Positions 8,224 to 60,460 of a stretch of 64,000 nucleotides of DNA are shown here, piece by piece. This DNA comes from Callorhinchus milii. Its lineage: Eukaryota. The stretch covers positions 72,232,001-72,296,000 of the forward strand of contig NW_024704742.1 in the NCBI RefSeq assembly GCF_018977255.1, in the 5' to 3' direction. Made by a program: the position numbers and the translations under genes. Below the pieces are notes generated by a model, which saw nothing but the letters and a program-made list of their open reading frames with translations, made no database searches and was not told the DNA's origin. Each line of letters opens with the position of its first letter. The stretch's first letter is position 1.

Positions 8224-8421
8224 CTGCGATGGAGTTGCTTCATGGGGAAGGAATGGAATTCCTGGATCTTGTGGGGGCAGCAGGGTCTCGGGGACCTGTG
8301 TCATGGTTACTTTAGGAGACAAGGAAAATTCCAGGGTTCGACCGCGGAAATCGTGAGGAATTTCTTTGAAAAAGCAGCACATGGTACTTGCGGCACTGGC
8401 ACACTCCAGCTGAATCAGAAC
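8224..8421 (-). CDS. ZNF638: RRM3 second exon ([37 protein letters not shown]...ATPSQ)
   Basis: ttttctccag|GTT...CAG|gtatgt; 198 nt, phase 0-0. Confidence 0.85.
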
Positions 8422-23400: not shown

Positions 23401-26400
23401 GATTGGCAAAAGCCAAGGTTTACATAGCCTAGAATGTGTGTTGGGGTAACTGCTGTTTAATAATAAATAATAATCCTTGTATTTGCGCTTTTCAATCTTC
23501 TAGGTGTCTCAAAGCACTTCACAGTATACTGTAAAGTGAATTGACTGTATATTTATGGGCGAAACGTGGCAGCCAATTGCGCACAGCAGTGTCCCACAAG
23601 CAGTCGTGGATTGAGTGACCAAATTCTTATTATTTTTTGTTCTTGAGGGAATATTATCAGGCATGTGGAAACTTGTCCAAGGTTTCGCCCTGCCGGGAAT
23701 CAAACCCAGATCTCTTGCTTGCAAGGCGTGTGCTGTAACCACTGGGCTACAGTTAATCAACTAAAACCACATAGCTTCATTGATATCGCTGTCTGGCAAG
23801 CTTTTCCACTGCTTGTCCAGCTTGGACCATCCTACCTGTTAGGGCTTTGAGTTGCAGGGTTAACAGAGCTGATTGGGATGACTGTTTGTCCCCAAAGACT
23901 GGTCCATCCTTCCAGGTCCGGCCGATGAGCCAGGCTGGCTGTGCTGTCATCAGCAGTGCCCTGGAATACTGTGGACCCACCTGGCTCAGGAATTGGACTA
24001 CCCAGACCACCAGAGGGCTGGCTCGATTCCGACATTCCATTGCCAGTTCAGCTCCAAGAAGACCCCGTTTACCTCATTAGAGGTATTCATTACCTCCAAC
24101 AAAGTGCAGGTTTGAACCTCGCTAGATGGATGGTAGGTACCAGGACTTGCAAATGTGCTGAAGGAAACCCTTCTGCTGCACGGACATAAGCACGGAACCA
24201 GGAAGGAGAACTGGGGAAGCAGTTCAGTAAGAATCATGTGAACAGGATCAGCACCACTACCCTGGCTCATCGGCAGGACTCAAGATGCAGACTGGCAGCA
24301 GGGATTCCTCACACTCAGTTTCTGTTAATTCTGCATTTCCCTTCAAACAAATCTCACGCGGTCTCTCAGCAGCCCTGGCTCAGATATAGGCGTTTTTCTC
24401 GTGCAGACGCTCCTTGATCAGCCCACCACACGTAGGCTGAGCAGAAGACGCAAGCACTCAGCTCCCATTATCCAGCTGAGGTAAGTACCCCTGCGCCAAT
24501 CATCACTGCCAGAAACACAAGGTACACAGAACAGCTCAGCTCTCACCACACTGGGATCAGAGACATCACTAGTTACTGAACAAACAAAGTGACTGAAATA
24601 TTCTTGAGGGATTATTATCAGGGAAGTGGAATAAGGAAACTTGCCCAAGGTTTTGTCCTGCCAGGAATCAAACCCGGCAAGAGACCCGCCCCCACCCCAC
24701 CCCGTCCTATTACAACACACAGTAACACCCGCCACCCACCTCCCACCCACCGTCTTACTGCAATCAGAGGATCTGGATTTAATCATTAGCAATTACCACA
24801 GAATCATGCCCCTCCCATGTACTGAAGATTTCATTAATGAGAGACTTTACAGAAGCTTTCTCCATCCAATAATTACCAATATCAGTTGAAGTTTCTGTTG
24901 TGTCCTGTAAGTCACCACTCGCCTCTAAAAGGGCTACATCTTTCCTAAAAAAGGCAGAGAAAAAGGAAATATTAGATATGCTCTTTTAGCCCCAACCTAA
25001 AACAAGCAGTTTCCTCAAGCCATCTTGGCACTGGTCATCATTACCCTGTGTAAGTGTTGAGTGCTGATCTGCTGATGAGTTCCCCTCCCTCACTCCTATC
25101 ATTGTTTACAGTTTGATACCATTTAGGCCTGTAGGGCTGAGAATTCCACTAGGCAAGGAAACCAATAGAATTAGCAAAGGAATGGGTGGAGACTTATGTG
25201 GAGGGTAAACATTAGCAAGGACTAATTATACCGAATGGCCTGTTTCCATGCTGACAGAATGTACAGAGTCCCTGCCCCACATCCATTTGGAGTCTGTGCT
25301 AAAAGTTAACGCCGGTGGCACGTGCACTACATGGTGAAAGTGGTGACAGATTCAAGTTCAGCTCCTGAGCCTCCAATCTCAGCAATAATGCTCAGAAGAA
25401 ACATGGAGCAAAGAACATGTAAGAAAGGGGTGTCAGAAAAATATGGATGGATATCTGCCATCAGTTCTCTTGCTGATTGCAGCATTTGTCCACTTGAGGC
25501 CACATAATAAGCCTTGCATTTGATATAGTGCCTTATCACATCTTCGAGACATCTCAAAGCGTTTCACAGAATATACTGTAATGTGAATTGACTATATTTT
25601 GAGGGTGAAATATTTTGTGGGTCAAATCTTCTATCCGCGGAGATGCTGGAGCAGCGGTCCAGCTGCTCCATGATCGCCTCTCCTCCACCTTCAACTCCCT
25701 CGTCCCCCTGAAATCCAGGACCATATCCAAACCCACCCGATCCCCCTGGTACAACAACCATCTCCACTGCCTAAAAACCCAAACCCACTGCTTAAGCACG
25801 GATGGCGGAAAACTGGCCTGATAGTTCACCGCCAACTGTGGCTCGAACATCTCCACAGTTACCGCCGTTCTTTGACAAGTGCAAAAACGGCCCTCTACTC
25901 CAACATCATCTTGGAGGCTAAAAGCCCTAAAATCCTTTTTTCCCCACCACCCACTACCTCCTCCGTGCTCCCCCCACAGGCCTCCTCAATCTTCATATTA
26001 TCCAATGCCAAGTGCAAGTGGACTTCTTTTCATCTAAAATACACAACATCCGCCAGGCAGCCTCATCCACCTGCCTCTTGTCACCCACCATCATGCCCTC
26101 TCTGTCCCCTCACCCTCCCCATCATCAGCTCCTACCATGACCCCCATCCTACATTCCTTCCTCCCCATCTCTCCCTCCTCCCTCTCACCCACCATCACCT
26201 CAATGAAACCAACCACCTGCTGCCTTGACCCCCTCCCCACCAACTTGCTGGTTACACAGCTCTCCCTCCTCTGCCCACTACTGGCTGATGTCATCAACCA
26301 GCCCCTCTCCTCCGGATCACTCCGTGTCCCCCTTAAAACTGCTGTCATCACCCCCCTCCTCAAAAAACCTTCCCTAGATCCCTCAAACCCCAGCCACTAG

Positions 26401-29400
26401 CGCCCTATTTCTAACCTGCCCTTCCTCGCAAAAGTCCTAGAATCTGTTGTTGCAAATCAACTCCGCAAACACCTCTTCTCCCACTCCCTCTTCGAAACCC
26501 TCCAGTCCGGTTTCCGCCCACAGCACAGAGACTGCACTTGTGAAAGTAACAAATGACATCCTCTCTATCTGTGACCAGAGCTCCCTCTGCCTTTGTCCTC
26601 CTGGACCTCTCTGCCTCGTTCGACAGTCGATCACGCCATCCTCCTCCACTACCTTTCCTCCGTCATTCACCTCAGCGGGAACGCACTCGCCTGGTTCAAG
26701 TCCTACCTCACAAACTGCCAGCAGTACATCTGCACAAACGGCTTCTCCTCCCACTCTCACCCAGTTACCTGTGGGTATCCCAAGGATCCATCCTTGGCCC
26801 CCTCCTCTTTCTGATCTACATGTTCCCTCTTCGGGATGTCATCTGCAGACATGGGGTACACTTCCACATGTATGTGGATGACACTCTTCCTCCCTATCCC
26901 CCTGACTCGGCGCTGGGATCCGTTACTGTGAAGCACTATGAGACGCCATCCGGCGTGGAGGGAGCTATATAAATCCAAGTTGTTGTTGTTCTTGTTGTTG
27001 AAACTCGGCAGAATTGCGCACAGCAGTGTCCCAAAAAACAGTCATGAATTTATCATTATTTATTTATTTGTAAGGGTTTATTACCCATGGAAAAGCGATT
27101 TGTCAATTGACTGTCAACCGGGTTCCTACTTACTCCTAGGTAAACAGAGGCATGTGGAGTAAGGAATCTTGCCTACTGTTTCTCCTGCCCGGGAATCGAA
27201 CACAGGTCCTCTTGCTTGCGAGTGCTCTAACCACAACATTACAGGACTCTAATGGCATGGAATTCCACCTAGTCCTGTCTCGTGCGGTGTCCCTCAGGGC
27301 TCTGTCCTCGGTCCCCTCCTCTTCACCCTCTATATGCTCCCCCTGTGGTGACATCATCCGCAGACATGGAGTTAACTTCCACATGTATGCGGTGACACCC
27401 AACTCTACCTTTCCTCCTCTACTCTCAACTCCACGACCACCGATGTCCTGACAGCTGCCTGTCCGACATCGAGTCCTGGACGAGAGACAACTTTCTTCAG
27501 CTCAACGTGCATAAAACTGAGGCCCTCCTGATTGGCTCACGTCAGCGCCTCCGCACCTCAGGCGCTGACAGCATCAGCATCCAAGGCTGCACTCTCCACC
27601 TCTCAAAGCAGTCAGGAACCTCGGGGTTCTGTTCGACCCTGAGCTGTCCTTTCTTCCTCATATCCGCGCCACAACTGGCACCACCTTCCGTCACCTCCGA
27701 AACATCGCCAGACTACGGCACTACCTCACCCCTCACGCGGCTGAAACTCTGGTCCACGCCTTTATCACCTCAAGGCTGGACTATGGGAACTCTCTCCTCG
27801 CCGGCCTTCCCGGCACCTCCCTCCACACTGCAGGTCATTCAGAACTCTGCAGCTCGTGTACTGTCCCGCACCAGGCTTCGCGACCACATCACTCCCACCC
27901 TCGCTCGCCTCCACTGGCTCCCCATCCCCCAGAGGATCGAATTCAAGATCCTCACCCTCACCTACAAGGCCATTCACGGTCTCGCTCCCTCCTACCTCTC
28001 TGACCTACTATCCCCCTACCTACCTGCCCGTACCCTCCGTTCCTCTGGCTCCAGTCTGCTCCACATCCCCCGCCCCAACCGCCCTACCATCGGTGGCCGG
28101 GCCTTCAGCCTCTCAGCCCGAGGCTCTGGAACTCTATCCCCAGTGCCGTCGACGCTTCCTCCCTTTCCTCCTTCAAGGCCGGTCTCAAGACCTTTCTCTT
28201 TGACCGTCGCCCTTCCTCAGCCTTCCCTCTCCGACCATCCCCTCCCCCCTCCCTTCCCTCCCCTCACCCTGACCATGTTCCCCCCTGCTCGGGTCCTGAC
28301 CCAACTGTACAGCGCCTTGGGATGTCCTCCCGACGTGAAAGGCGCCCTATAAATGGAATCTTGTTGTTGTTGTTGTTGTTGTAGGACAACCTTAACTAAA
28401 AATTAAGATTTTTTAATTTGAGTTTGGAAGCTGGTTTTCCAGTTTTTTTTAAACTAGATTCCTAATTTAGAAAGAATTAATAATAAAATCATTAATAATT
28501 AATAAAATAACAATTTGGTCACTCAATCCACGACTATTGTGGGATATTGTTGTGTGCAACTGGCTGCCGTGTTTCGCCCACATAATATACAGTAAATTCA
28601 CTTTACGGTATATTCTACGAAGCGCTTTGAGACGTCTTGAAGATGTGATAAGGCGCTATACCAAATGCAAGAATTATGATTATTAATTGAAGAATTGCCA
28701 CAACTCCTAAATTTAAGACAAATGATCTTAAAGTGGATTTCAAGCCTCAAAACTTCCATAAAATATAATAATCCACCTTTCCCAAATACCACCTGAGGCT
28801 TTACACCACAATTCCTCCCGTCTCTCACAGCAACATTCCCATTTTAACTTGACATTACCAGCCTTTCCCTGGAGGCCAGGATCACAAAACCCATCACTAA
28901 GTTGTAAATAACCAGACTTACTGTGCAGAGCATTCCTGGCTCTTTGGTTCCTCCTTTAGACCCTAATTAGGAAAAAAAAAGTTAAATATTTTACAGTAGC
29001 TAATTTTATATGACCGCAAGCTCTCGTACACAACACAGACACACTTTCACAGACACACGGGCTGACACAGGCTGCTCTAATCTCTCGCTCCGGTATATTC
29101 ACGCTGCCTGCGGTCTTGCCAGACATTCCTTACCAGCTTAGCAACCTCCTTCTTCTTGCCGAGCAGCATCATGGTGACTTGCCGGTGGTTGATCTCCACT
29201 GGTGTGATGCTATAAAACTCCACAACAGCCACTGCTGCCTCCTTGAAGGCCATCTCCAGGAAAGCCTGTAGCAAACAGGGCACAAACCCAGGGTTCCAAA
29301 ATCTACACTTGTATTTTCCTCGATCTCCCTCCCCCAGCACAACACACTCTGCCCAGGGTTACTTCCTGCCCCATGCATCCAGACTGCCCCACCCACCACC

Positions 29401-32400
29401 CCAGACCCTGGCCCCACTCCCAACCCCCACACAGACCTCAGACCCTCCCCCCATAGTCCCCACTCCAATGTGCTTCTCCTCCAGCCCCCACCACCATCTT
29501 ATGTGGCGTTCCTCGGGGCTCTGTCCTCAGTCCCCTCCTCTTCAACATCTACACGCTCCCTTTTGGTGATATCATACGCAGATATGGGGTTAACTTCCAC
29601 ATGATTGCGGATGACACCCAACTCTATTTCTCTGCCTCCATCTTCGATTCCAGGACAACTGACAGACATCAAGTCCAGGATGAGAGCTAAGGGCTCCAGT
29701 TTAAGGACAACAAGATTGAGGCCCTCTTGATTGGCTCCTGTCAGCGCCTCCTCACCTCGGGCACTGGCAGCATCACTATTCATGCATGCACACTCCACTT
29801 CACTGAGCCAGTCTGAAACCTTGGCATCTTGTTTGACCGTCACGGCAACTTCTATCCCACATCCGTGCCATGACTCGCTCTGCCTTCCCCATCCCCAACC
29901 TTGCCTGGCCCCATGCCCCAGAGGATAGAGTTAAAAATCCTCATCCTCGCCTTCAAAGCTTCCACGGCCTTGCACCTTCCTATCTCTGTAACCTGCTACC
30001 AGCATATCAACCTGTCCACGCCCTCCGCTCAGCAGGCTCCGGCCTGCCACGTCCCCCGCCCGAACACCCACAATCTGCGTTCGAGCCTTCAGGCTCTCTG
30101 GCCCCACCTTTGGAACTCCATCCGACATTTCCTTCACCATGCTCCCTCCCTTGTCTCCTTCAAGGCACGTCAAGATCCTCCTCTGCGACCGCATCTTCGA
30201 CCACCCTCCTAACTCTACCCTCCCTGCCACCACCGCTCCTAATCCCAACCCCCTGCTTGGGCCCTAAACTCTTGACTGCTTTAATATCTTGGACCTCTTG
30301 ACGTGAAAGGCGCTATACACATGTAATCTGTTGTTTTTGTGCACAAACCCTGCCCGGCTGCTGGAGAGTTGGATAATTTCTGATCGGGTGTCTGATCTAT
30401 GCTGTCGCACCACGTTAGCATTCCACGTTACCCTGCTCCCATGCAAGCAAACACACAACCAGTTGATCTGCGTTTCATTACCTCATTTTTTGAGCGCAAC
30501 AGCTTAATGGAGGTGACTTTCCCGAATGGCTGGGTCAGCTTTAAGACATCTTTCTGTGTGTAGCCATCGGGGGGCAGGTCAGTCAGGTGAACCACACGCC
30601 CGGTCTTCCTCATTGCTTCCTCCTTCAGACAGTGAGCAAAAAACAGAGTTCATTGCTTTCAGGTGCAAGATTACAACAGACAATAATAATAATCCTTGCA
30701 TTTGATATAATAATAATCCTTGCATTTGATATAGCGCTTTTCACGTCTCAAAGCGCTTCACAGAATAGAATGTAAAGTGAATTGACTGTATATTTGTGGG
30801 TGAAACGCGGCAGCCAATTGCGCACAGCAATGTCCCACAAACAGTCGTGGATTGAAAATGACCAATTTATTATTGTTTTGTTTTGGAGGATTATTAGGTG
30901 TGTGGAGTAAGGAAACTTGCCCAAAGTTTCGCCCTCTGCCTGGAACTGAACCCAGGTTCTCGCTTGCAAGGCGAGTGCTCTAACCACTGAGCTACAGGAC
31001 TTCACGATATACCGCCTTATCACATCTTCAAGACGTCTCAAAGCGCTTCACAAAATATACTCTAAATTGAATTGACTGTATATTTTGTGGCGAAACATGG
31101 TAGCCAATTGCGGACAACAGTCCCATAAACTCTTGTGGAGTGAGTGACAAAATTATTATTAATTTTTTTTGAAGGGATTATTACCTCTGGAAAAGTGATT
31201 TTTTTCAATTGTGCACAAAATATGTAAATTTACAAATCATAGCATAGGCCGAATGGTCTCTTTCTGTGCTGTATGATTCTATGACATCCCATGCAGGCCC
31301 ATCCAGCAATGACACACACCACATGACATACAGGCCCAGTAATTACACACACCACATGACATACAGGCCCAGTAATTACACACACCACATGACATACAGG
31401 CCCAGTAATTACACACACCGCATGACACACAGGCCCAGTAATTACACACACCGCATGACACACAGGCCCAGTAATTACACACATTACACATTAATTCTGT
31501 CCCTTCCTTTCTTCATTCCCCACAGAGACACTGACCTGTTGGACACTAGTCTCTTTCTGGGCAGCTTGCTGAGCAGGTTTCTGCACTGAGGCGGCAGCAC
31601 GCACTGGAAGACACGACACAAACAACCATTGAAAGAATGAGTTCTATTTTTGTGTATAAAGAATGTTTTTAAACAGCCATTACATTTAAGGTTGATTTCC
31701 TTTCCCTACTGTACCAAAATGAGAAGAAATGGTTTCCCATGCTACAGTGGTTTCCCAGTCACTCTGCCTCGCCCCCTCCTTAGCCTCCTTCAAGTCCCGC
31801 CTCAAGACCATGCCATCCCCCTTCCTCTCCCTTCCCCCACCAACCCCAGCTCGGGTCTGAAATGCTGTACACTGTCCAGTGCCTTGGGACGTCCTCTCGA
31901 CGTGAAAGGTGCTATACAAATGTAATCTTGTTGTTGTTGTGCTGTGTGCACTGTCTTCATTTGCAAGAAAGCTTACCTTCTTCACAAGCAAGGTCAATCT
32001 ATAGCTAATGGACGTCCTTACCAGCCTACATTAGACTGGAGTTTAATTTCTGAATCATCACATTCATTAATGGAGTAAAACTTGCATAAATCTGATCTGT
32101 ATCAATCGCATAATGGCCCAAGTCTTACATCCACCCAAGTCCCGCTGAATTTCCTATTAAATCCATTTAAGTTTACATGCCCTTATCGTACCGAGTAACT
32201 TGTAACGCCGCTACTGCACTTGCCGGGTCAAAATTTTGTTTCCTGCCCCTACCTCAAACAGAAAATGTGTTACAGCATGAAGCAGCATATTCAGTGCTTC
32301 ATGGGAGGCAATCACAGGAACCTAAGTCCCCACCCGTCATGCGCATTTACTGTCTGCAATTCTGAAGGACCGAGTGCACAGTACAAAACAGTGAACAAGT

Positions 32401-35400
32401 ATGGAAGACAAGGTGTTGACCAGAGATTATGATATCAGGCAATGCAGATACCCCAGCTAAATGCAAATTAGTAACAAGCACCTATCAGGACAAGTACCAA
32501 ATTCTCCAATTTTGCGAGTCAAATCCTAAATTAAAAAGGAAATTTGATTTGAAGCCACAGAATTTGAATGAGGGAGATCAGGCAGAGTGGACTGAGGGTA
32601 TATGTCTGACTTAATGTTTTCTTAAAAAGTGATTGATAATTCAATTACAGTGTTAGTACTGTAGTTCTTTAATAAGAGTTTATATTCTATCAAAACAATT
32701 TGATTTTGAAATCCTTTTGGTTGTGCCATTCATTAGACAGTACATGTTTTCTGCACATGAGGTACAGTACTACGCAGTACTGTATATGGAAAGAGTGGGC
32801 TACCATAGCTTTAATATGCCTAGGTTACACATGGTACAGAAACCTTGCTTTAATGTCACCAGCCAAGACAGTACTTGTCTATTTATGATGTGTAATTCAT
32901 ATAAAATCTGACTTATACATTACTTTACATAAGTGATATTAAATATATGGTCCCATATGACTTATGTGAGGTTTACTGTACTCTACCTTCAGTGCTCTTT
33001 GCTTCACTGGAGGCCGCAGGCCTCGCTGTGTGGCCAGCCACTTTTGAAGACTTCTGGTTTGCAGGCTTCTGGCTTGTATGCTTGGAACTGGATTCCTTCT
33101 GAGGTTTGCGCTTTGGACTGGAGTGGCGTGGGCTTGACTTGGATTGGTGCGGGCTGGAGCGTTTTGGGCTGGCCCTGGACTTATGTGGACTCAAGCGCCG
33201 AGGACTGGCTCTGCACCTATGTGGGCTTGAGTGTCGTGGACTGATCCTGGACCTGTAAGGGCTCAAGCGATGAGGACTGTGTCTGCCTCTGTATGGGCTA
33301 GAACGTCTGGGACTTGATCTCCTTGGGCTCAGACGTCTAGGGCTGCCCCTGTATGGGCTCAGATGTCTGGGACTCCTCGATCTATGAGGGCTAAAACGTC
33401 TCGGGCTCCTTGACCTATGTGGGCTAAAACGCCTGGGGCTCCTTGACCTATGTGGGCTAAAACGTCTAGGGCTCCTTGACCTGTGTGGACTAAAGTGTCT
33501 GGGACTCCTCGATCTATGTGGGCTCAGACGTCTGGGGCTCCGTGATCTGTATGGGCTCATTCGCCTGGGGCTGGACCTGTGTGGACTTCGCCTGGGGCTG
33601 GATCTGTGTGGGCTGAGATGTCTGGAACCGGATCTTCTGGGACTCAAATGCTTTGGACTCATGCGCCCGGAGCCGGAGGACAAGAGGGCTACGTCCGCAG
33701 CAGCAGCCTCTTTCTCTTTTTTCGCCAGATCATCCCTATTGGTAAACAATCAAATACATTTCCTTCAGCTTGGATCACGGTTAAACAGTAAAAGTGAGAA
33801 CGCTTTTGTGCAAGAAATGTATCAATTTAAAAAACACAATACTACTTCAACATCAGGAAAACTATTATATTATTGATCATCACACCCCAGCCCACCGCTT
33901 CCATTCTGTACGTGGTAGGTGGAACTGTATGTGGTAATTGGAATGGGGAAGATGTCTACACAAAATGGGGACTTCCTCTAAAGAGAAGTTTTGAATCAGG
34001 AACCAAACCAGCCATAGCAACCACCTTAGTAACTATCTGAGAGTCAGGTGGAAGTGAGGTTGGAATATAAACTCACAGCACATGTGCGGGAGTGACTGCA
34101 TTGATTGTGTGACTAATCGTGGATGTACGTTTCCATGTTTCCAGCTTTTGGAAACAATACCTCCGTGCTCCACCGGCGATGTACAAGGAGCAGAGAGTGG
34201 ACCCAGGAGTAGTAAAGATGCTACCTAGCCCAATTGTTCTTGTTGCATGGACCAATGCTCCACTCTTGCCCAAAATGGTTACTAAATTACTCAGTGCCAG
34301 AGAATGTTCATCCAGTTTAGAAAACCCACCCTAACCCCAGCCCTGCCTCCAGCTAATTCCCCAATGAGAAAAGTTTGATTTCATAATAAAACTTACTTTG
34401 TTGGAGGAATAGCATCTGGATTCCAATCTGGATATCTGTAAGACAAAACATTTGAATTCATGTGGAGTGACTGAAGCACCCTGCAGTATGGTGTGAGGCA
34501 AACCTGTGAGGCAAACCGCTGATCACTCTTTCAATTATCTACACAACATCTTGGCAACAGCAGTCTTAATCCCTGTGCCCAGATTACTCAATTGTTATAG
34601 AATAACAGTATGTGTACAGTACAGAGCAAGGTCATTTGGTCATAGTGTGTGCTAGCTTCCCTACTGGAGCCATTTACTCATGCCAGTCCCTGGTCTCCTC
34701 CTCCCCTAACCATTTAACATTTCCCTCACTTACATTAATCCATTCCCTTTTAAAAGCTCTTATGGAATCTGTAGTTTAGTGGTTTTGATTCCCAGACAGT
34801 GCGAAATGCTGGGCAAGTTTCCTTACTCCACACACCTCTGTTTACCTAGCAGTAAGTAGGAACCCGGTTGTTAGTCAATTGGTGGATCGCTTTACCGGGG
34901 TAATAATCCTTCAAAAAAAATAATAATTGTCACTCACACTGCTGTGTGCAATTGGCTGCAAAGTATACAATCAATTCAAGTATATTCTGTGAAGCGCTTT
35001 GAGACGTTGCAAAGACGTGATAAGGCGCTATATCAAATGCAAGGATTATTATTAATATTATGGACTCAGCTTCAACTATTCATGGTGAGGAAGATAACTG
35101 AAAATAGTACTGTAAAAATCACACAAAGGAGGGGAATAAACAAGACTGGGCGTGCAGATTTATCTCAAACAATTGAGAGAAAACCAAGGACAAAAGTTAA
35201 GATGTAATTTAGAAAGAAGAATATTGGAGAAAAAGGCAGAACGTTTACAATATTTACTGTAAACTAAGAATTGATCTAATACTTTTCAAAGCTACTTATA
35301 AATATTTTCACAATTGAAATGCATGAAAAAGAAAGCCCCCTCCATTAATAACCCAATGAAATCCAAACTTAAATCCTCACTCTTTGAGCAAAAGCCGGCA

Positions 35401-38400
35401 GCTGTCATTGTGGATAGATGTTTTGTTGTGACGATCCCAGTCCTGCAAGAAACAAACGATAAAAGACTTTAGCAAAGCTCAATGTGAGTCGATTGTTGAC
35501 TTACAACAAAAACACAGTGATGGAAGCAGACAGGAAGTTGTCTGTTTCTTTAACTCAGCACATGTCTGCATCAGCCCAGATCTGTGCTGCATAGATTAAA
35601 GTAGCAGCACCTGGCAACTGCATCACGACTAGGAACCGCAGCATCATCGATGCTGAATGAACTGAAACTGAAACTAGGAGGAAAGGGATCACATTAGACA
35701 TGGAACCTACCTGTAATGTTATTCAAAAAAGATTTCCCAAAGAGATGCAGCTAAGAGCTCGGAAAAAATCCCTTTTTGTGAATGCTAACTCATTGCATTG
35801 AAATTCGAAACACCAGTCCTCAAAAACACAAGACTCTAAAAGCTGAATCTTCCACACATTTATAGCCTTGCACTTTTATACAAAGCTGCTGAATACAGGT
35901 ATGTGATGGGGTATGCTGTATAGCAAGGCTTGAACTACTTTGGATAAGATTTAGCATAATTGCTAACTGCTGGATTGTGTACAGCAAACTGCTAGGATTT
36001 TCAACCTTGTAATCCACAATGTACAAGAAGATTTATGACCAAAAGTGGAAAATGTTTTTGCATTGTCAGAGAATAGCCTCATAACTAGCTCATTGCATTA
36101 AACCATCATTGCAATGATACACAACTGCACTTTGCAGTAAAAATAACCTGGAGAAACTGCGTACTCTTTTAACAGCAAAAACAATAAAGTCCCATATTGC
36201 CCACGATTTCTCTCTCCATTATTATTATTAAACAGCCTATGAAAATGTAAACCAGTAGGCAAAAAATCAAGCCAGTGTTTGAGGCCTGTGATAAACCAGT
36301 TTCACTTCATCCCAAAAGAGTACAGACAACCTGAAACTTTAATTAACCATTTTAATGATAACTCGCTGGAGGATTTTGTTACCAATAGGCATTCTGTTCC
36401 TTTTCTGCCTCTCCTCTCCTGAATACATTTCAACATATCCTCTTCCACTGGGAAGGCCAGCCAGCTGCCCTCTAATGGGTCAAGTAAACATGACAGTCTA
36501 TTCAACCGTGATTGGCACTGCAGCACAGTCTAGTCCAAATTTTGCCCAATATCCCCAAACCCACCTCCAGCAACTGTAGGGTCCTAACTGAGGTCAGCCA
36601 ATTCAGTCTTGAACTGAAACCTTCTTGGTCTCTGGGCTCAACAACTTACTAGATAAACTCACTGAGCAAGCATTCAGAGAATTTCTGAATAAAACATTGA
36701 CAGGGTACAAAAGAGATCTGGCCAGAGCAGTCAGCCCACAATATGAACAATTCCCTCTCTTATTCATAGAACCTGCAATTTCCTCAACTATCGAATGACT
36801 AATATAAGAGAAATTCTCTTTTCTAACTTTTGTTAAAAACTAAACAGTAGTTAGTCATTCAGTCTCCCAAAGCCCATTAATATCGAAGAAAAAAAAGGAA
36901 AAAGAGTGGAGTCTTGGTGGGTTCATATTTCACAGTCTAGTCACCAATACAATGTGGCCTCCTGCACTTCCCTTATCTCCGCACCACGATTGGCAGCCAC
37001 GCTTTCAGCCACTACACCCCGAGACTCTGGAACTGTCTGCCTCAATTCCTCCACTTTGTCCCTCCTAGTCCATCTTCAGATCACATGTGAAGACTTTTTT
37101 CTTCGATTGTGCCTACAGCCACCTTCCACCTCTTCCTGGCTTGGTGTCAAGATCTGCCACTATTAAGCATTCTGAAACACTACCCCACTTGAAGGGCGCT
37201 GTGTAAATGTTGTATCCCAGGATCCCTCATAAGTGGAAACACATAAATAGCAAATGGCTTCTTTTTGTGCAGAATATTTTCACATGTTGCACTGAATCAT
37301 ACATAGCACACAAGTCAGTTAGAACTTCAACGTCTCTTTACCTTTTCTCCCATTTCCACAAGTCAGACCATTGTAAGGGGCTTGGCATAGAAATGCAGCA
37401 CCAGCCGAGCTGGAAATGGTGGATGCCACTAAAAGGTGTTGGATAAACCATCAGCCCTGACCACACTCAGCCTATTGAACCCCTCCCAGTTTTAATTTAG
37501 GATCAACATTTCTATAAATCCCCTTTTACAACAGTCATCAGACAATTTAATTCCTGTCCCAGGCTCAAATCAAAATCCCACCCAAAGGAAAGGTACTGTA
37601 CTTTCTCTCATTACATGGCAGTCTCACTGATGTTTGGGACTGTATAATTGAGGTTGGGTAGTATTATTCTCTAGGGCTGTAACAGTTTTTATTGTAGTAC
37701 ACTGTTGCCTCTCTCGCTCACACATTTGCTTGTACTTTAATAAAATAATCTGTCAGAAATTGTGCCACATCAGACATGCTTTGTATCCAGGAGTCAGTGG
37801 ACAAGCACCGATTCTTTTAAAGAAGTGAAGAATTGCACATAAGAGGATTACTGGATACATAACTCACAGAACGATCTGCCTTTGGTAAGCTGGCCAGTGT
37901 TGAAGGTTATTAGTTCCAAAGCTACTCCATACGTCAACAACATTGAAGAGCTATTTCTCTTCACTGCAGAGGGTACAGTGTGGATTTGAAAGCACGTCAA
38001 ACTCCCATACTTTTTAAACACCGTTTCTTTGTCAGAGATGTTGGGCAGTCTTCAAATACCAGACAAATTAAAAATAAATGTGGGAGGGAGAGAGAAAGAG
38101 AGGATAAGAGAACCAAGCTACGACCATTGCAACCTTTAACTGAAACGGTTGACAGACAATACCACTTACAATACTGCTCAGCTTGTTGGTATACTCTTGA
38201 GTGGAAGAACGCTCTGCACAGCAGTAAGGTGGAAGCTTGTGAGCACCATCCCTATTCAGACACAAACCTTAATGTGGCGAGATTGTTCAAGTCTCTCCTA
38301 CTCAGATTACAATGCCAGATATTCCCAGTTCTTTACCTTGGGAGCCTTGAAGCAAGCTGCATCAGAAGTTGCCAAAGACACCAATACCTACTCTAAATGC

Positions 38401-41400
38401 ACAAGTTAATCCAGCTTCTCACAGTCTGAGCTTTTGCCCTGAGACTGACTGCCTCAAATGTACTGATCGACACATCAATCTAGGGCCACATCCTCCATCT
38501 GCAGCGATTTTCCACTTTTTACAGTGAATCACCTCACACTTTATCTTGCAGTTTACATGTGGGCTGCAGGAAATCCTTCGCGTTGCTAGGAGCTTTTGAA
38601 AGCCACATCCAAAACACAGTAATCTTATCCTGCATCAAGGCTCCACATTTCTTGAGATGAAAAAAGAGAGGAAAAGGAACAAAAAGCCTTTTCTCAATCC
38701 TCAAAATAATAATCCTTGCATTTGATATAGCCCTTTACCACATCTTCTAGACGTCTCAAAGCACTTCACAGAATATACTGTAAAGTGAGTTGACTATGTT
38801 TTGTGGGCGATCAGCTTCCAATTGAAAGTTAGCGGCTATCCGGACTCCTGGATCGGTGCAGATCAGCAGTTAGAAATGCCTGTATCGTCCAAATGAGGTC
38901 CTCGTGAGCCCGAACGTTGCACTTGAGGGCAGCCACCACCATATCCTGCTGTGTTTCCTCTGTTGGATCCATGCATCACTTTGACATGATGCAGCTAAAA
39001 GTGATAACCATTGCCAGTCTGAATACATGAGAACACAAGATCTTGCACTTGTGACCTGATAATGTTCAAGGCACAATTTATAATTCACAGAGCACAAGCT
39101 TTTTACAACACTAAAGTGCTGACTGTGATGCATTATGGCCAAGTTTCAGTGAATATTCAAATATTTGGCAGCTTTTCCCATTGTGACCACCACTCACTTG
39201 CTTTGGTACAGCACAATCTTCACTGGTACCAGGTCTTCAGTGTGAATTGACTGTCACCATGTAAAGAACACATTTACTTTCTCTATCAGAAAAGCAAGCG
39301 ACAAGACCTGGGTTTGATTCCCGGACAGGGCGAAACCTTAGGCAAGTTTCCTCACTCCACACTGTTTACCTAGCAATAAATAGGAATCCGGTGGTTAGTG
39401 AATTGGCGGATCGCTTTTCTGGGGCTAATAATCCCTCTAAAAATAATATTCTGCTCATTCAATCCACGACTGTTTGTGGGACACTGCTATATGCAATTGG
39501 CTACCACATTTCAACCACAAAATGCACAGTCACGACACTTTACAGTGAATCCTGTGAAGCGCTTTGAGGCATCTCAACCAAGTGATAAGGCATGATATCG
39601 TATGCAAGGATTATAAATGCAAGCTTTATCAGGATGCCCAGCCTCTGGGTGAGATTTTCCAATGACTTCTCTGTCCTCGATAAACAAAGCAAACTGAGGA
39701 AAAGGCTATGACTGCACTCAAGGTCCAAATAACTGTGGACAGAGTGTCAATGTCCAATAATAGGACACTGGGAAAAATTAAGGGAGGGTGTAGAGTTTAC
39801 CCTTTCACAAATTTCCTCTTTTTATATTATAATCCTTGCATTTGATATAGTGCCTATCACCTTGTTGAGACATTTCAAAGCAATTCACAGTATATAGTGT
39901 AAAGTGGAGTGACTATGTACCTTATGGGGGAAACTCTGCAACCAGTTATGCACAGCAGGGAACCACAAACAGCCTCAAGCTGAACCACCAATGCTTTTAT
40001 TGGGGGATTTGTTACATGGATTTCTGCATTGCACCAGTTAGGCAGTCACTAAGATCCACCTGCTCAACATTAAAGGCATATCAAGCAGGCCACATGTACA
40101 AAACTGGCCTGGAGTCCTGAGGTTCTGAAATTCAACACTGGATGGAGCCCAGCAGCTGGATCTAAACAGCATTTCAGCATGTGATCTGAGGTCCTTGGTG
40201 ATAAGAGTCAATGTGACCCACTGCAGAATAATAAGGACCTCACACCAGCCAGCATCTGAGATATACATGAAACCCTAAGTGCCACAGCCAATATGACACA
40301 AGCATCAATGTGAAAAAGAACCAAGTGCTAACAATGTAGTTACACCAGGTACAGTTTTTTCTCTTCAAAGGTGACTCTTATGGACCAAGGACACCAGCCC
40401 TTTGGGTATTGTTCTCTGCTGTCAATATAGTTCTATGACCATGAAGGTGCTCAGTTGAAACCATATACTGTTACTCGCCCAAGTGGCTCCCAGGGGATCC
40501 TGAGCCTCTGTGCATGAGTGTTCTCAAACCCTACAAGAATCTTGAATAATGGGCGATAACTATAGCCGCTGGACTTTTCCCGAAAGATAACATGGCATAA
40601 ATATTAATTCACATTAAAAGCCACAGACTTTCTGAGCAAGTGTTCAGTGGAACTGCACAGGCTCACAGGTAGTCACATACAAATTTGCTGGGAACACCTG
40701 AGACGCTCAATGCACAGCAGATAGGGGGTTTTCCTTGATCTTCTGGAAGAATCACTTTCATATCGACGTTACCAATACTGATGAGCAGCAACAAAACAAG
40801 AAAGAGCGAATGAGCCAACATCACAATGTCAGCACTGAAGTCTTAGAACGTGTCTCATGCAATTCTTCCATTGGTAACCTCGGCTTGTCCTCACAGTATG
40901 TGGAAGATGCAAAATAGCGATTGAAGAGAAACTTTTGGTGTTGGTTTGCACCACTCTATACATGGATCTGCTCACACAGTGAGTGACTAATTACTCACAC
41001 ATGGTTCAAGCCAAATGGTGGATTTTCCCCAAAAATTAATCATTAAAAAATGTGAAATGAGAAGTTTACTGGAGGTTCTCTCAGTGGCTTGTTATCGTTT
41101 ACAGAAACATACACAACTTCACACACACACATCAGTTTAAAATAAAGTCATGAGCACATGTCCTAAAAGACTAGCATTCCATGTAAGCAGTGCCTCCATT
41201 TTCCCTGACCCCTTGCTTAAGCTTTAAACACACGAGATGGGAGTGTGAGTTTTTCTGCTGGAAACACAGCAACAAACAAGTTCAGATTTAACACAGTGCA
41301 TTAAATCATTGGTCTCAGTGCTCCACAATACAGATTTGCTTTTCTCATTGCAGCGAGATTTAACCTTGAAAAATGAAGTTTTTCTTGAGCGGTACATCTA

Positions 41401-44400
41401 ATCACTAGCGTCATATTTCAAGGCTATCAGAAGGGCCTCCCAAACTGCTGACATGAGACTAGAGAAGTGATCTTTATAAGGTTTCACTTGCTTTATTCTC
41501 ACTCTCACCAAGCAACCATATCCTTAGTGCCCAGCATCATAACGGACCACCTTGCCCGTGAGTGACCTGGCTAAACTGGTCGGAGGACCAGCAGGATACA
41601 ACAAACTGATTTGAATATTTGTTACAATCATCTTTATTGCGATAATAAAGCAAAGGGGAAACTTGAATGTTTATCTAGATTGCAGGACCCTATCGAGTAA
41701 ATGCAGCGCTAAGTTCTTCTCTCTATGATCAAAGGTCTTCAATTAAGGTTGGAACTGAATACTTGTCGAACTAAGACAGAGGCCTCACAGCTAGACAGCT
41801 TTGCAGGCACTCCACAGAAAGACAGCGAGGACTCACAGTAACGACGCCTGTTAAGGAAGAAAATAGAAAAGGCGAACTAGGTAACAAACACTCACCCTCA
41901 TTTGTCTACATTCTATGTTACACAAACTGCACACGTGGGGCAGCCGCCTCGCAGGGACACCATAGTAATCATTCATCAGCCTGGGTGTTGGCAGTCCCTT
42001 CTTCACCACTATGTTTGTCCACTTCATGGTGTGTGCAGAGTTGTCATGCAGAGGCTCGCTTGGGTAATTCGGAGTCGGACGTTTGTAATCATCATTCCAG
42101 GCTCCTTCTCTCACCGTGTCGCGGCCATAGTGCATGTTCGGACTCGCCATGGGTCGGTCTCGATAGTCGTACTGTTGTCCATGTCCGTACTCCACCACAC
42201 TGCTCTGCACCTCTCGCCGGTAGTCTTCGTCTTGTAGCTTGTACGGCTGATCGTAACCGCTAGTTTGTTGCTTGTTCATTTTCCGCATTCTTATCTCCCT
42301 TAAAATGTAGGGCATGTTCTCAGGAGTCAACTTCTCGTCTGGGTAACGGCTAAGTTCTTCTAGATCTTCATTTGAAAGACCGAAATTCGCCAAGATATTG
42401 GAGGCCTTCATCGTGTCGTGAAAACGCTGCACGGCAGATCTTGGGTCTGGGTTCGGCGGGGCCGGTGTGCCAGTGTTCCCATAGCCAGGCCGAAAGCCTC
42501 CCGGTGGAGGATTCTGGTACGACCACTGACCTAAGCCTATATTATTTCCAGGTTGGTTCATCATTCCCATGTTCATTCCACCACCAAAGCTGCCCGGTGA
42601 TTCTGCTGGAGCTCCTATTCCTACGCCTCTTCCTCCTCTTCCGCCTCCCATGAAGGGTCCCTGAGGGGGATTCATGCCAAATTGGTTGGGCGGTGGTCCT
42701 GGGTTCTGGCCGAACGCCCCTCTGGCATTGAACATGGACATGTTGATCTTCACCAGAGCTTGGTTCAGAGACGTGAGTGTTGGGTTGGAGACAGTTGTGG
42801 AGGCGACAGAATTCAGCTGTTGTAGGGCCAGATGGGCTTTTATCTGGGCGAGCTGTAAATTTGCTTGGCCTAATAGAAGCGGACTGGTAATGCCGAGGTT
42901 CAATGAATTCACTGCTGGAGTACAATTTTCCAAGAATAACGCAAAGCTGAAAGTTAAAACACAAATATTAGATTTTTACGTTTGAGGAAGTTTTAGCATA
43001 TCAAGGGTTTTAAAGCCAGTCATCATATATTTACACGTGCCTATTAAAGGAAGCTATTCTGGGTGCAGCAAAACAAACCCAATGAGGACAGCTACATCAA
43101 GGACATCCAAGACATTAGAAAATGTGTGACTGACAAATAGGCATCCAGCAGTAGAATTTTCTGTGTGGCTTTTTGAAACATCTGCATAGTACCTATACAA
43201 AGCTTAAAGTGCATATTGTTTACTCTTGTGTACATTCTACTTTCCAAAAACTTACCAGCATTGGGGTCATCATCTTCCTGGTGGATCCACATAATGTTTT
43301 TTCAACTCTGCCAAACACCAATTGATTTTCCACCTAATTCCATTTTAAACCATCAGCCATTGGCTATACAGAAGGCTTGATCTGAGATCTGCAGCACTAC
43401 ACTAGTGATGTCGGAGAATGATTCAACAGAATCACGGACATGTCCAGCTGCCTATTATTTGGAGTGCAGTCAGATTCGCCTACAGAATAGTTATTAATCT
43501 ACAGTAAATCCTACAAAGCACTCTGAAATGATTCAAGAGATTTGATGAGGCATTATACCAAATGAAAGCATTATTATTCCCATATGTTGCAATCGTTAAA
43601 GGCCCACATAAAGCAAGTTATAGTAAATGTAATTTCAAACATTCAGCATACTGATATCTTCATATCCCTTTCTGCCCAATCAATAGCTTAGCACTAAGAA
43701 ACACTGAAATTTTGCTAAATTCTACATCTTTTAAAGCTAGACTTAAAGGTGTCAGCTTGGCTCAGTTGGTAGCACTCTTGCCTCTGAGTCAGAAAGCTGT
43801 GAGTTCACGGCCCATGTGGGGACTCTGAACTCACCGTGTCTAGGCTGAAACTACAGTGCAGTGCTGGAGTTGTGCTGCATTGCTGGAATAGCAGTCCTTC
43901 AGATAAAAAAGTTAAACCGAGATCCTGTCTTCAGGTTCAGGATGTTAATCAAGATCCCATGGCACTATTCGAAAAAAGGAGGCAGTTTGACACCCTGTTC
44001 TAGCAACAAACCCCCAAATATAATTGGACACTCACCCCATGGCTATTTGTGGAACACTGCTGTGCACAAATTGGATACCATATTCACCTACGAGTACAGT
44101 CGCTCTGCTTCACAGTAAAATCCTATGAGGCATCTTGATGATGTGCATGGATTATTTATAATTTCCACATTTTTGACATGTTGTAGTCCCCGACCCCATG
44201 CCAAGACATTGCTGGTGCACTGTGTGCTGAGTGGTGAGAATCTACCCCAACATCAATAATGAAATGTTTTCTGCTCACCATGTGACCTGGTTTAATGGAA
44301 TCACACAGGCGAAAGGCATGAGGTGGAATTTCAGCTATGCACCTTGAGCTAAAGGTAACTGCAGTTTTAATACAGAGCGTTACATTGCCGTCCTTGAAAA

Positions 44401-59400: not shown

Positions 59401-60321
59401 CCTGGTCCTCACCTTCAACCTCCACCATGGTCTTGCTCCCCGCTATTTCTGTGACCTCCTAACCCACTACCATCCTGCTCGCTCCCTCTGCTGAACGGGC
59501 TCTGGTCTGCTTCAAGTCCCCCACCTCGCCCACCCACCATTGACGGGCGGGCCTTCTGCCCCTCTACCCCCACCCTCTGGAACTCCACCCGCAGTCCCTC
59601 CGCCTCGCCCCCTCCCTTTGCCTCCTTCAAGACCCTCGTCTTCGACTGCGCCCACGGTCACCCTCCTACCCCTCCCCGCCTTGCTGATCCCAACCAGCAG
59701 CTCGGGTGCGGATCCCTGACTCTCCAGCGCCTTGGGACGTCCTCGTAAAACATAAGGAGGACACAGCTGTGTAAATGTAATTTGTTGTCGTGTAAACTAA
59801 ATTAATGATGGCGCCCCCGGGGGGGGGGGTGGGGGGGGCAGCGCAGAGCCGGTGCCTTTACAGCTCCTTCCTCAGGGAAACCCCGTCCCCGCACAGGAGA
59901 CCGACTCGAGCACCTGGAAGAGGTGGGGACTGGAAAGAGAGGCCTTCCCATCCTCTCCCTCCCTCCCTGGCCCGGACCTGCCTCGGGCTGAGGCTGTGCA
60001 GGGAGCGGCTGGAGCCGGGGGCGAGGGGCCGGGGATTCGGTCGGGACGAGTCGGGGGAACGCGAAGGCGAGTGGTCCGAGGCCCGGCAGCCATCTTGTGG
60101 AAGGTTCTAGACTCGGGGCGGCGACCCAAGGCGGCTCCGCGGCTGTGACTCTGTCTCCCGGTGTGAAATGGGCGCCGGGGCCGTCCCTACCTGCCGTGCG
60201 GCTCGGTGCCCGCGGGCCGCACCGCTCGGGTCTGTGTCGCTGGCTCTCTGCCCCACTCCCTCGCCACCGCCGCTCCGCGATCCTCTCCCGCCGCTGGTCC
60301 TCCAGTCCGGCCCCGACACAT
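8224..60321 (-). CDS. ZNF638: Multi-exon gene span: zinc finger protein 638 (NP220)-like, MATR3/RBM20/ZNF638 family; 3' end not found in window
   Basis: Spliced translation gives [42 protein letters not shown], then [11 protein letters not shown]...[11 protein letters not shown]...[15 protein letters not shown]...YPDWNP, an RS region and three RRM-like domains. This matches my recollection of ZNF638 domain order (MATR3 has two RRMs, RBM20 one). The upstream boundary depends on the inferred exon 1. Confidence 0.88.
8779..11365 (+). mobile_element. CR1-clade LINE, truncated at both ends and frameshifted: ORF1 esterase tail, APE endonuclease, RT
   Basis: [14 protein letters not shown] (ORF1 end), YLNARSI/ITETW/YRPP/GDFN/SDH (endonuclease), [44 protein letters not shown]. 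Confidence 0.95.
11365..14460 (-). mobile_element. Second CR1-clade LINE, decayed, convergent with the first; carries a SINE insertion
   Basis: ORF-track fragments from 14208..14399 down to 11348..11842 give the same endonuclease-to-RT motif order on the minus strand. Confidence 0.95.
12553..12863 (-). mobile_element. Same SINE family, nested in the minus-strand CR1
   Basis: Splits CR1 [10 protein letters not shown]; head gagtcctgtagctcagtgggtagagc. Confidence 0.9.
14726..14863 (-). CDS. ZNF638: RRM3 first exon ([46 protein letters not shown])
   Basis: Not in the ORF track; translated by hand. ctttatccatgtag|...AAG|gtaatg; 138 nt; VH..NLPEDG motif. Confidence 0.9.
15040..17338 (+). mobile_element. 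Young L2-clade LINE, 5'-truncated, with 595-aa RT ORF (15450..17237) and (TTG)n tail
   Basis: [78 protein letters not shown]. Confidence 0.95.
17885..17932 (-). CDS. ZNF638: 48-nt linker exon ([16 protein letters not shown])
   Basis: ttttctctctccag|...GAA|gtaagt; phase 0-0. Confidence 0.85.
18440..18801 (-). mobile_element. Same SINE family
   Basis: Head, core and tail all present on the minus strand. Confidence 0.85.
18916..19047 (-). CDS. ZNF638: RRM2 second exon ([44 protein letters not shown])
   Basis: tttttgttgacag|...ATG|gtgagg; 132 nt, phase 0-0. Confidence 0.9.
19325..19694 (-). mobile_element. Same SINE family
   Basis: Head gagtcctgcagcgtattggttagagc, core and tail present. Confidence 0.85.
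19806..19946 (-). CDS. ZNF638: RRM2 first exon ([47 protein letters not shown])
   Basis: tttgacttgcag|...CAG|gtgact; 141 nt, phase 0-0; NLP.KGY...LAKPFG motif. Confidence 0.9.
19961..21055 (-). mobile_element. 5'-truncated CR1 LINE with intact 3' UTR and (TTCTTATG)2 tail
   Basis: 309-aa RT C-terminal ORF at 20062..20991, followed by ggctcgaggggccgaatggcctactcctgctcctaattcttatgttcttatg. Confidence 0.95.
22320..23348 (+). mobile_element. L2 LINE 3' fragment
   Basis: [30 protein letters not shown]; tail gccttgggacgtcctcccgacgtgaaaa...ttgttgttg. Confidence 0.9.
23459..23752 (-). mobile_element. Same SINE family, interrupting an older dispersed repeat
   Basis: Head tgtagcccagtggttacagc; tail attatt. 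Confidence 0.85.
25630..27000 (+). mobile_element. L2 LINE fragment, internally deleted
   Basis: [39 protein letters not shown] and FHMYVDDT joined directly to an L2 tail. Confidence 0.85.
27005..27249 (-). mobile_element. Same SINE family, 5' two-thirds
   Basis: Head and core present; tail replaced by the adjacent L2 end. Confidence 0.8.
27272..28384 (+). mobile_element. Young L2 LINE 3' fragment, same family as 15040-17338
   Basis: Near-identical by eye to 16190-17338; (TTG)n tail. Confidence 0.93.
29134..29265 (-). CDS. ZNF638: RRM1 second exon ([44 protein letters not shown])
   Basis: tgtttgctacag|GCT; AFLEM RNP1-like motif; donor CTG|GTAAGG; 132 nt. Confidence 0.9.
29500..30338 (+). 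mobile_element. Decayed L2 LINE 3' fragment
   Basis: tgtggcgttcctcggggctctgtcctc, ttccacatg..gcggatgacacccaactcta, and L2 tail gacgtgaaaggcgctata. Confidence 0.85.
30482..30622 (-). CDS. ZNF638: RRM1 first exon ([47 protein letters not shown])
   Basis: Matrin-type RRM motif RVVHL..LP..GY...PFGKV; 141 nt; donor GAG|GTAATG. The acceptor is an AAG, so the exact start is less sure. Confidence 0.88.
30683..31200 (-). mobile_element. Full SINE (30683-31002, duplicated tail) plus adjacent 3' half of a second copy
   Basis: ataataatccttgcatttgata occurs twice in tandem; head gtcctgtagctcagtggttagagc at ~31000. Confidence 0.88.
31312..31485. repeat. 33-bp minisatellite, about 5 copies (acacaccacatgacatacaggcccagtaattac)
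   Basis: Directly visible; gives 11-aa periodicity in the ORF track. Confidence 0.95.
31536..31603 (-). CDS. ZNF638: 68-nt linker exon ([23 protein letters not shown])
   Basis: gtcttccag|...CAG|gtcagt; phase 1 to 0 exactly bridges the RS exon and the RRM1 exon. Confidence 0.75.
32987..33735 (-). CDS. ZNF638: Arg/Ser/Pro-rich (RS domain) exon
   Basis: ORF-track 32973..33749. Acceptor tttaccaatag| in phase 2; donor AAG|GTAGAG in phase 1 (moderate strength). Confidence 0.85.
34397..34435 (-). CDS. ZNF638: 39-nt exon ([12 protein letters not shown])
   Basis: ttttgtcttacag|...|gtaagt, phase 2-2; YPDWNP is the family motif after the zinc finger. Confidence 0.92.
34768..35055 (+). mobile_element. 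Same SINE family, with internal deletions
   Basis: ggcaagtttccttactccacac core and standard tail. Confidence 0.85.
35381..35442 (-). CDS. ZNF638: 62-nt exon, second half of zinc finger ([20 protein letters not shown])
   Basis: gtttcttgcag|...|gtgagg, phase 0 to 2; supplies the two His ligands after CxxC. Confidence 0.92.
39292..39615 (+). mobile_element. Same SINE family
   Basis: B-box gggtttgattccc, core and tail. Confidence 0.85.
41896..42946 (-). CDS. ZNF638: Large exon: Leu-rich segment, G/P/M-rich low-complexity region, matrin homology domain, first half of matrin-type zinc finger
   Basis: ORF-track 41851..42933. Acceptor ttttaactttcag|CTTTGCG at 42946; donor AGG|GTGAGT after 41896 (phase 0). 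First in-frame ATG within the exon is at 42741 (MSMFNARG). Confidence 0.93.
43750..44155 (+). mobile_element. Older Deu-domain SINE (SacSINE1/AmnSINE-like)
   Basis: Head tggctcagttggtagcactcttgcctctgagtcagaa; Deu-like core gttaaaccgagatcctgtc...aagatcccatggcactattcgaa. Related copies at ~4985-5185 (+), 1100-1340 (-), 51690-51910 (-) and 53390-53645 (+). Family name is from memory. Confidence 0.7.
45018..45362 (-). mobile_element. Same SINE family
   Basis: Full head to tail on the minus strand. Further partial copies at ~24590-24680, 25505-25620, 28505-28685, 38705-38810, 39825-40010, 46520-46690, 50450-50637 and 52735-52900. Confidence 0.85.
51500..51690 (+). mobile_element. Old CR1 3' fragment
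   Basis: TRGHNYK...[16 protein letters not shown]...[14 protein letters not shown]. Short CR1 tails also at ~25170-25265 and 49150-49285. Confidence 0.75.
55018..55077 (-). CDS. ZNF638: Candidate 60-nt symmetric cassette exon ([19 protein letters not shown])
   Basis: Acceptor ttttcctgtcatag|, consensus donor CAG|GTGAGT, stop-free in phase 2-2. No homology evidence. Confidence 0.4.
57729..58127. mobile_element. Penelope-like element remnant with inverted terminal segments and a 15-bp flanking direct repeat
   Basis: 57783-57864 is the imperfect reverse complement of 58023-58104; AAAATCAGACAAAAC at 57714-57728 and 58128-58142; contains a hammerhead core. Confidence 0.75.
58024..58060 (+). ncRNA. 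Minimal type I hammerhead ribozyme motif
   Basis: AGUU (stem I) - CUGACGA - A - GGGUC/GAG/GGCCC (stem II) - GAAACGUC - AACU (stem I'); palindromic ACGU in place of stem III. Confidence 0.75.
58890..59790 (+). mobile_element. Two adjacent decayed L2 3' fragments
   Basis: The LDY.NS...[10 protein letters not shown] segment appears at ~58890 and again at ~59230; tail cagcgccttgggacgtcctc. Confidence 0.8.
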
Positions 60322-60460
60322 CGAGCGCCAAGAGAGGGAACCGCGTGAACCACGCCGTGCGCAGCCAACACAGACGAGCGCCTATCCGGTCCCAATGCCA
60401 GCTCAGAGCTGCTGTCAGTCACTCCCTCGTTGTCACTCAACCCAGAGCCCCGCCCACTCC
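59810..60460 (-). promoter_or_regulatory. CpG island / promoter region of the minus-strand gene
   Basis: Sharp rise in GC and CpG; GC box ccccgccc at 60448-60455; CCAAT at ~60392-60396; YY1-like CAAGATGGCTGC at ~60086-60097 (minus). Confidence 0.8.
60191..60321 (-). CDS. ZNF638: Candidate exon 1, coding part ([43 protein letters not shown], phase 2)
   Basis: Lies in the CpG island. ATG at 60321-60319; donor CAG|GTAGGG after 60191; 131 nt = 43 codons + 2, matching the phase-2 acceptor at 42946. Confidence 0.5.

Follow-up and report, generated by a model that had tools for sequence, protein, structure and literature searches.

A leucine-rich segment at the front of ZNF638 exon 2 in Callorhinchus milii is related to RBM20 and probably translated from an upstream AUG

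The ZNF638 gene of Callorhinchus milii lies on the minus strand of the 64,000-nt stretch analyzed here (the window, contig NW_024704742.1, positions 72,232,001 to 72,296,000; coordinates below without a contig are those of the window) and raises the question of whether the sequence in front of its conventional start codon is protein-coding and, if so, from where it would be translated and to what it is related. An initial annotation, made from the sequence letters, had read the 205 nt between the exon 2 acceptor and the first in-frame ATG as a stop-free extension that aligns with the leucine-rich region of RBM20, and had described it as a family-wide domain treated as 5′ UTR in reference annotation.

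The front of ZNF638 exon 2

The window gene is identified as the ZNF638 orthologue by tblastn matches to ray and shark ZNF638, which run collinearly from 42948 to 8224, and the gene extends beyond 8224 toward lower coordinates. The 68 codons of the segment occupy 42945-42742 and are free of stops, with ATG 42741 directly after them, and their translation is identical to that given in the initial annotation; the 205 nt of 42742..42946 contain no ATG in any frame. The open frame is weak evidence alone, as 4.6% of 20,000 mononucleotide shuffles are also open, and a second reading frame of the segment is likewise open. Judged by comparison with other vertebrates, it is the conservation of the 68-codon segment, and not the length of its open frame, that exceeds chance. 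Farther downstream, the RS-rich exon is enlarged by 33-nt (11-residue) tandem units present in 6.6 copies.

Table 1 Features of the ZNF638 locus in the window and the related RBM20 exon
Feature	Position	Strand	Basis or remark
Leucine-rich segment, first 205 nt of ZNF638 exon 2 (1 junction base and 68 codons)	42742..42946	-	Frame, conservation, RBM20 homology
Splice acceptor AG of ZNF638 exon 2, phase 2	42947..42948	-	Sequence and spliced contig
Conventional ATG, A at −3; first ATG of exon 2 in any frame	42739..42741	-	Aligns with first Met of RBM20 exon 2
Entire exon 2, 1051 nt, phase 2 to phase 0	41896..42946	-	Shares its terminal codon, within zinc finger 1, with the RBM20 exon
ZNF638 exons 3′ of exon 2: zinc finger end, RS-rich exon (32973-33749), RRM exons	8224..41895	-	tblastn with P0001, P0003 and P0007
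CpG-rich first exon, donor 60191/60190	60191..60385	-	Spliced contig reaches 60254, unspliced contigs 60351 and 60385; 5′ end unmapped
Sole ATG in 60191-60520, in frame with exon 2	60319..60321	-	43 codons and 2 nt before the donor; C at −3, T at +4
Promoter-like presumed reverse CCAAT box (60396) and GC box (60455)	60392..60455	-	Motif match only
RBM20 exon in the same genome, 1120 nt	L010 601-1720		Phase 2 to phase 0, ends at the same zinc-finger codon

Residues 1-80, used as a query, matched 7 of 115 candidates, all of them elasmobranch ZNF638 models with 86-91% identity over the full query length, and the ray segment matched 50 of 278 candidates, from sharks, rays, birds, turtles, a crocodilian, lizards and teleosts, with no mammal among the 50 matches listed. 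A profile search across 1.84 billion representatives returned 33 matches, those with names comprising ZNF638 of lungfish, caecilian, frogs, tarpon, milkfish, characin, lizard, alligator and birds, together with three hypothetical proteins and one frog RBM20. Similarity begins at the first exon 2 codon in 44 of the 48 proteins examined (two ray isoforms omitted), the remaining four being bird models without the first segment residues, and 23 columns are invariant in ten chosen sequences, with residues 1, 4, 5 and 6 among them, so that translation must begin upstream of exon 2. Compared with 12 chosen vertebrate proteins, identity is 50-90% over the 68 residues and 10-71% over the 100 residues after them. 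The initial annotation had named stops or frameshifts in orthologues as evidence that would speak against it; the protein alignment from shark to teleosts and amniotes contains whole-codon gaps only. These comparisons support the segment as strongly conserved coding sequence, and we infer that it is translated in Callorhinchus milii.

How the segment is annotated elsewhere is mixed. A query with the motif downstream of the segment recovered 412 proteins; among the 120 listed, 26 carry the full segment (14 of them mammalian, with opossum, tenrec, degu, voles and marmoset among them) and 94 do not, and thus the segment is annotated in many genomes and missing from most mammalian models. The statement that reference annotation starts at the downstream Met holds for most mammalian models, since 88 of the 94 segment-free models among the 120 listed begin at the conventional Met, 69 of these 88 in its mammalian form. 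The RefSeq models XP_051888820.1 (Pristis), XP_059506706.1 (Stegostoma) and XP_053560313.1 (Bombina) treat the segment as coding behind an upstream AUG, and XP_056670018.1 (Monodelphis) and XP_035128219.2 (Callithrix) do likewise, although these models are computational and their leaders lineage-specific, and the Hemiscyllium model XP_060689889.1 lacks the segment.

In human, a ZNF638 N-terminal extension is listed in Table S2 of Rodriguez et al. 2024 (PMC11317171), with its ATG at chr2:71276639, coordinates 71276639-71276751 and 71348753-71348954, an empty GENCODE v44 cell and conservation entries reading ‘Mammals’ and ‘Sharks and rays’; the upstream part measures 113 nt (37 codons and 2 nt) and the exon 2 part 202 nt (1 nt and 67 codons). 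Table S3 of the same paper reports one human peptide inside the segment with 2 spectra, which supplies a mass-spectrometric peptide upstream of the annotated Met, a check that the initial annotation had proposed. With I read as L, this peptide differs at a single position from marmoset segment residues 37-65. The main text counts ‘one in sharks and rays’ with the gene unnamed, ZNF638 being named only in the supplement, and the accessible passages draw no link between the ZNF638 extension and RBM20. The human extension shares with ours the gene and exon, the phase-2 junction and an upstream ATG exon, with 202 nt of exon 2 there and 205 nt here, whereas its ATG exon lies 72 kb upstream and the sole documented first exon here lies 17 kb upstream and carries an unrelated leader. 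The ZNF638 extension is already known, having been published for human and annotated in many genomes from rays to marmoset, and the novelty that the initial annotation had claimed for it is lost, given the supplement of PMC11317171 and the 26 of 120 listed models that code the segment.

The same observations bear on a further reading, in which the segment would be 5′ UTR that is not translated and would owe its conservation to a role as an RNA or splicing element, or be a relic of an ancestral coding region. The 94 of 120 listed ZNF638 models without the segment and a stop-free frame at the 4.6% chance level are compatible with it, but the whole-codon gaps from shark to teleost and amniotes, the stronger conservation of the segment than of the annotated coding sequence behind it, and an RBM20 counterpart (see below) that is canonical coding sequence all argue the other way, and the human peptide in the supplement of PMC11317171 contradicts it, making it the most improbable of the readings considered here.

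Where translation of the segment would begin

Contigs from four of 14 listed sequencing runs, the RNA status of which is a guess, were compared with 59790-60480. In run X6, one spliced contig covers 60254-60191, and its loose end equals the first 30 bases of exon 2, fixing the donor at 60191 and the phase-2 junction as seen from the exon-1 side only. This contig stops at 60254, short of ATG 60321, and only unspliced contigs span the ATG: those of runs X4 and X5 show no splicing at the donor and extend to 60385 and 60351, respectively, and run X1 has no contig there, which counts as evidence for nothing either way. The nearest in-frame stop upstream of ATG 60321 is at 60384-60382, and promoter-like motifs, which we take to be a CCAAT box and a GC box, lie just upstream.

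The X4 and X5 contigs run ~300 bases into intron 1 (59866-60190), which would reflect a retained intron, nascent RNA or DNA as alternatives. Contig variants at 60264, 60255 and 60241, a 3-base deletion and two substitutions, leave the frame from ATG 60321 intact; one substitution is synonymous and one non-synonymous, and the variants are too few to use. A 34-bp minisatellite at 60449-62004 and 62848-63853 (49 and 31 copies) adjoins the first-exon promoter, with a LINE fragment between the two arrays.

We consider it probable that the segment is a conserved RBM20-like front of exon 2 that is translated only in a long form, from an AUG in an upstream exon, and that a short form starts at 42741. 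In Callorhinchus milii, the long form would start at the weak-context ATG 60321 in the spliced first exon, provided that the mRNA begins upstream of it, and initiation there would add 112 residues, while ribosomes scanning past 60321 would reach 42741 and produce a short form without the segment. On the spliced mRNA, no further ATG would precede 42741, so that one mRNA could give both forms.

The initial annotation had left the start open between an exon-1 AUG and a near-cognate codon; the upstream AUG now looks likely, with 60321 in frame, and a near-cognate start is not needed. A long form starting at a near-cognate codon, such as the in-frame TTG 42933 or an exon-1 GTG, could draw on in-frame near-cognate codons at 60267, 60222, 42933 and 42912 and on the CpG-exon leaders, which are wholly different between lineages. 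Yet the residues upstream of the TTG are invariant at the protein level, and an in-frame ATG is present both here and in human, so we hold such a start to be highly unlikely. The in-frame ATG here (60321) and in human also sets the gene apart from non-AUG extensions of the type described by Fedorova et al. 2022 (PMC9789052), and ZNF638 is absent from the preprint text and, two files apart, the supplements of that work.

In other vertebrates, leaders of 18-60 residues that end in D-P-x-x-x recur among the ZNF638 models, and many other leaders are unrelated GC-rich strings. Such D-P leaders are found in shark, ray, lungfish, caecilian, two frogs, lizards, turtles, birds, opossum and placentals, with a modelled D-P exon in three amphibians, and in ray P0001 the D-P exon precedes a second leader segment. 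For most other jawed vertebrates, the models begin the long form in a separate AUG exon of 18-60 codons with this ending. The D-P set was chosen by eye, which makes the motif count of 18/19 in the set versus 0/24 outside it circular. In leave-one-group-out tests, from which four teleost leaders were omitted, the held-out member ranked first in 9/9 groups, but at 3.5-22.7 bits and with ties or near-ties (opossum tied). The marmoset model has a 39-residue leader and a segment of 67 residues, and the human arrangement of 37 codons and 2 nt followed by 1 nt and 67 codons fits the phase-2 junction and this leader length, so that the human ATG exon is likely the D-P exon as well.

The 43-residue exon-1 peptide of Callorhinchus milii resembles none of ten other leaders (in the best comparison, 28 of 500 shuffles scored as high). 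No D-P exon rose above background in the window by genome search and profile scan (337 candidates, including the first 80 kb), and none was found in the 280 kb upstream by profile scan (1864 candidates, best E 0.63-1.4). The window leader itself ends in E-P-x-x-S and ranked only 3rd to 11th of about 26 against the D-P profile. The D-P exon of Callorhinchus milii may have been lost, may be too diverged or farther away, or may be the 60191 exon itself.

It is also conceivable that the segment is translated from a D-P-type AUG exon that escaped detection, with 60321 a chance ATG in a GC-rich non-coding exon that gives mainly the short form. The D-P exon modelled in shark, ray, lungfish, three amphibians, sauropsids and mammals, together with the weak context of 60321 and its unconserved peptide, would suit this arrangement; against it stand the two scans, neither of which gave a candidate above background, and the E-P-x-x-S of the local leader, which could be the motif despite its rank. 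We regard an undetected exon as unlikely and retain ATG 60321 as the probable start.

Relation to RBM20 and to Matrin-3

Queried with the ray segment, the Callorhinchus milii genome yielded three candidates, of which two matched, the ZNF638 locus and G000:C7:4055671-4055844 (E 7.6e-4), and the latter locus (L010) resembles a frog protein named RBM20 at E 2e-49. Aligned with the first 85 residues of L010, the 68 residues of the window score 72 (shuffle mean 32.5, maximum 66; 0/3000 as high), and the HMM score is 27.5 bits versus a best of 10.7 among 2000 shuffles. Comparison of the ZNF638 segment with RBM20 by hhalign gave a probability of 91.6 and an E of 8.2e-7, with ~40% identity over 51 aligned columns, and the named frog RBM20 was recovered by the segment profile at E 3.3e-4. 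The alignment with the RBM20 leucine-rich region proposed in the initial annotation is borne out by the 0/3000 shuffles, the hhalign result and the frog match, which support homology of the two segments beyond compositional bias.

In RBM20, a splicing factor of the heart, the counterpart of the segment is canonical coding sequence. The first ATG in any frame falls at residue 71 in the RBM20 exon and at residue 69 in ZNF638 exon 2, and the two align, and therefore the conventional ZNF638 start would be the counterpart of an internal RBM20 Met. In the teleost proteins P0050, P0065 and P0078-P0080, the context of the Met is nearer to that of RBM20 than to that of amniote ZNF638, in support of the aligned-Met reading. 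In both genes, the homologous segment opens an exon that begins in phase 2 and terminates inside zinc finger 1, and the first ATG of this exon sits in the aligned position; a coding first exon leads to the long form of RBM20 and the exon 2 AUG to its short form, as would be the case in ZNF638. By contrast, the long form serves as the reference for RBM20, whose short form was the discovery, and for ZNF638 the roles are exchanged.

A different picture emerges for three loci on contig C13 of the same genome that share the downstream motif and that, by this motif, are likely Matrin-3. Like ZNF638, these presumed Matrin-3 exons have the downstream motif and an exon end inside zinc finger 1; unlike it, they have no leucine-rich segment and begin at Mets of their own, which follow an in-frame stop by 11 and 21 codons. 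A profile search of the three Matrin-3-like loci and a fourth weak match, each as a 3-kb locus, found no leucine-rich segment (best E 1.9), exons beyond these 3-kb loci being covered only by the genome search with its 2 matches among 3 candidates. Only one RBM20 and, among those named, no Matrin-3 is found in the 33 profile matches. By these comparisons, the leucine-rich domain belongs to ZNF638 and RBM20 and not to the whole Matrin-3/RBM20/ZNF638 family, and the ‘family-wide’ domain of the initial annotation fails because the Matrin-3-like exons of this genome lack the segment.

The three Matrin-3-like motif exons (L033, L034 and L032) lie inside 52 kb at G000:C13:10442895-10494060; two carry a Met of their own and terminate within zinc finger 1, the middle copy is diverged as well as shorter, and the three may be alternative first coding exons or tandem duplicates.

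A possible shared long/short switch

Radke et al. 2026 (PMC13198548) report that RBM20 exon 1B leads to a short form starting at an exon-2 AUG, which lacks about 50-128 residues and retains splicing activity. The discussion of that paper gives the leucine-rich region no mechanistic assignment, its main text leaves ZNF638 unmentioned, and one passage describes the RBM20 short form as shifting toward the L-rich N-terminus (PMC13198548). Such a shift would not fit the loss of the entire segment. A loss of 128 residues would fit a Met at the end of the RBM20 segment, to judge from human RBM20 and from the first-Met position in L010 and in the frog RBM20 protein.

Taking these observations together, we lean slightly toward one ancient isoform switch in ZNF638 and RBM20, in which first-exon choice or leaky scanning would include the homologous module and the short forms would start at the same ancestral Met. 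Since RBM20 has the same layout, the long/short design is likely older than the ZNF638-RBM20 duplication. We likewise infer this shared ancestral switch, the start at 60321 and a ratio of long to short form.

The accessible parts of Watanabe et al. 2018 (PMC6279932) and of PMC12795506 connect ZNF638 with RBM20 solely through their RRM, zinc-finger and RS regions. No paper linking the ZNF638 segment with the RBM20 leucine-rich region was found, subscription journals lying outside the search. Accordingly, the RBM20 homology and the likely shared long/short switch by first-exon choice were not found in print, and only the RBM20 parallel looks new.

By analogy to the RBM20 short form, which keeps splicing activity, we propose that the segment is likely a short helical protein-contact module, one that would tune abundance or partners and be dispensable for RNA binding. 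There is no Pfam family for the exon or the segment, a PDB sequence search with the segment gave nothing below E 1.1, and the ESM Atlas held no usable match for it. A homodimer prediction scored 0.00, which counts neither for nor against this proposal. The 100-degree hydrophobic moment of the 21-residue core is 0.15, a value that does not show an amphipathic helix, so ‘helical’ refers here to composition only.

If the shared switch is true, the reference human ZNF638 would correspond to the recently described RBM20 short form, and functional studies based on the reference cDNA would have overlooked a segment whose conservation exceeds that of the sequence behind it. In cardiomyopathy, the ratio of long to short RBM20 is shifted, and a homologous switchable module in the widely expressed ZNF638 would offer a second gene and 23 invariant positions for testing the leucine-rich region. 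It also suggests that human variants at present classed as ZNF638 5′ UTR fall in the coding sequence of a long form. As an annotation gap, the extension itself had already been pointed out in a published supplement, to which the RBM20 parallel is a modest and testable addition.

In the newt Pleurodeles, models P0075 and P0077 contain the segment, and the conventional Met is absent from the stretch behind it; should these models be correct, that newt may produce mainly the long form.
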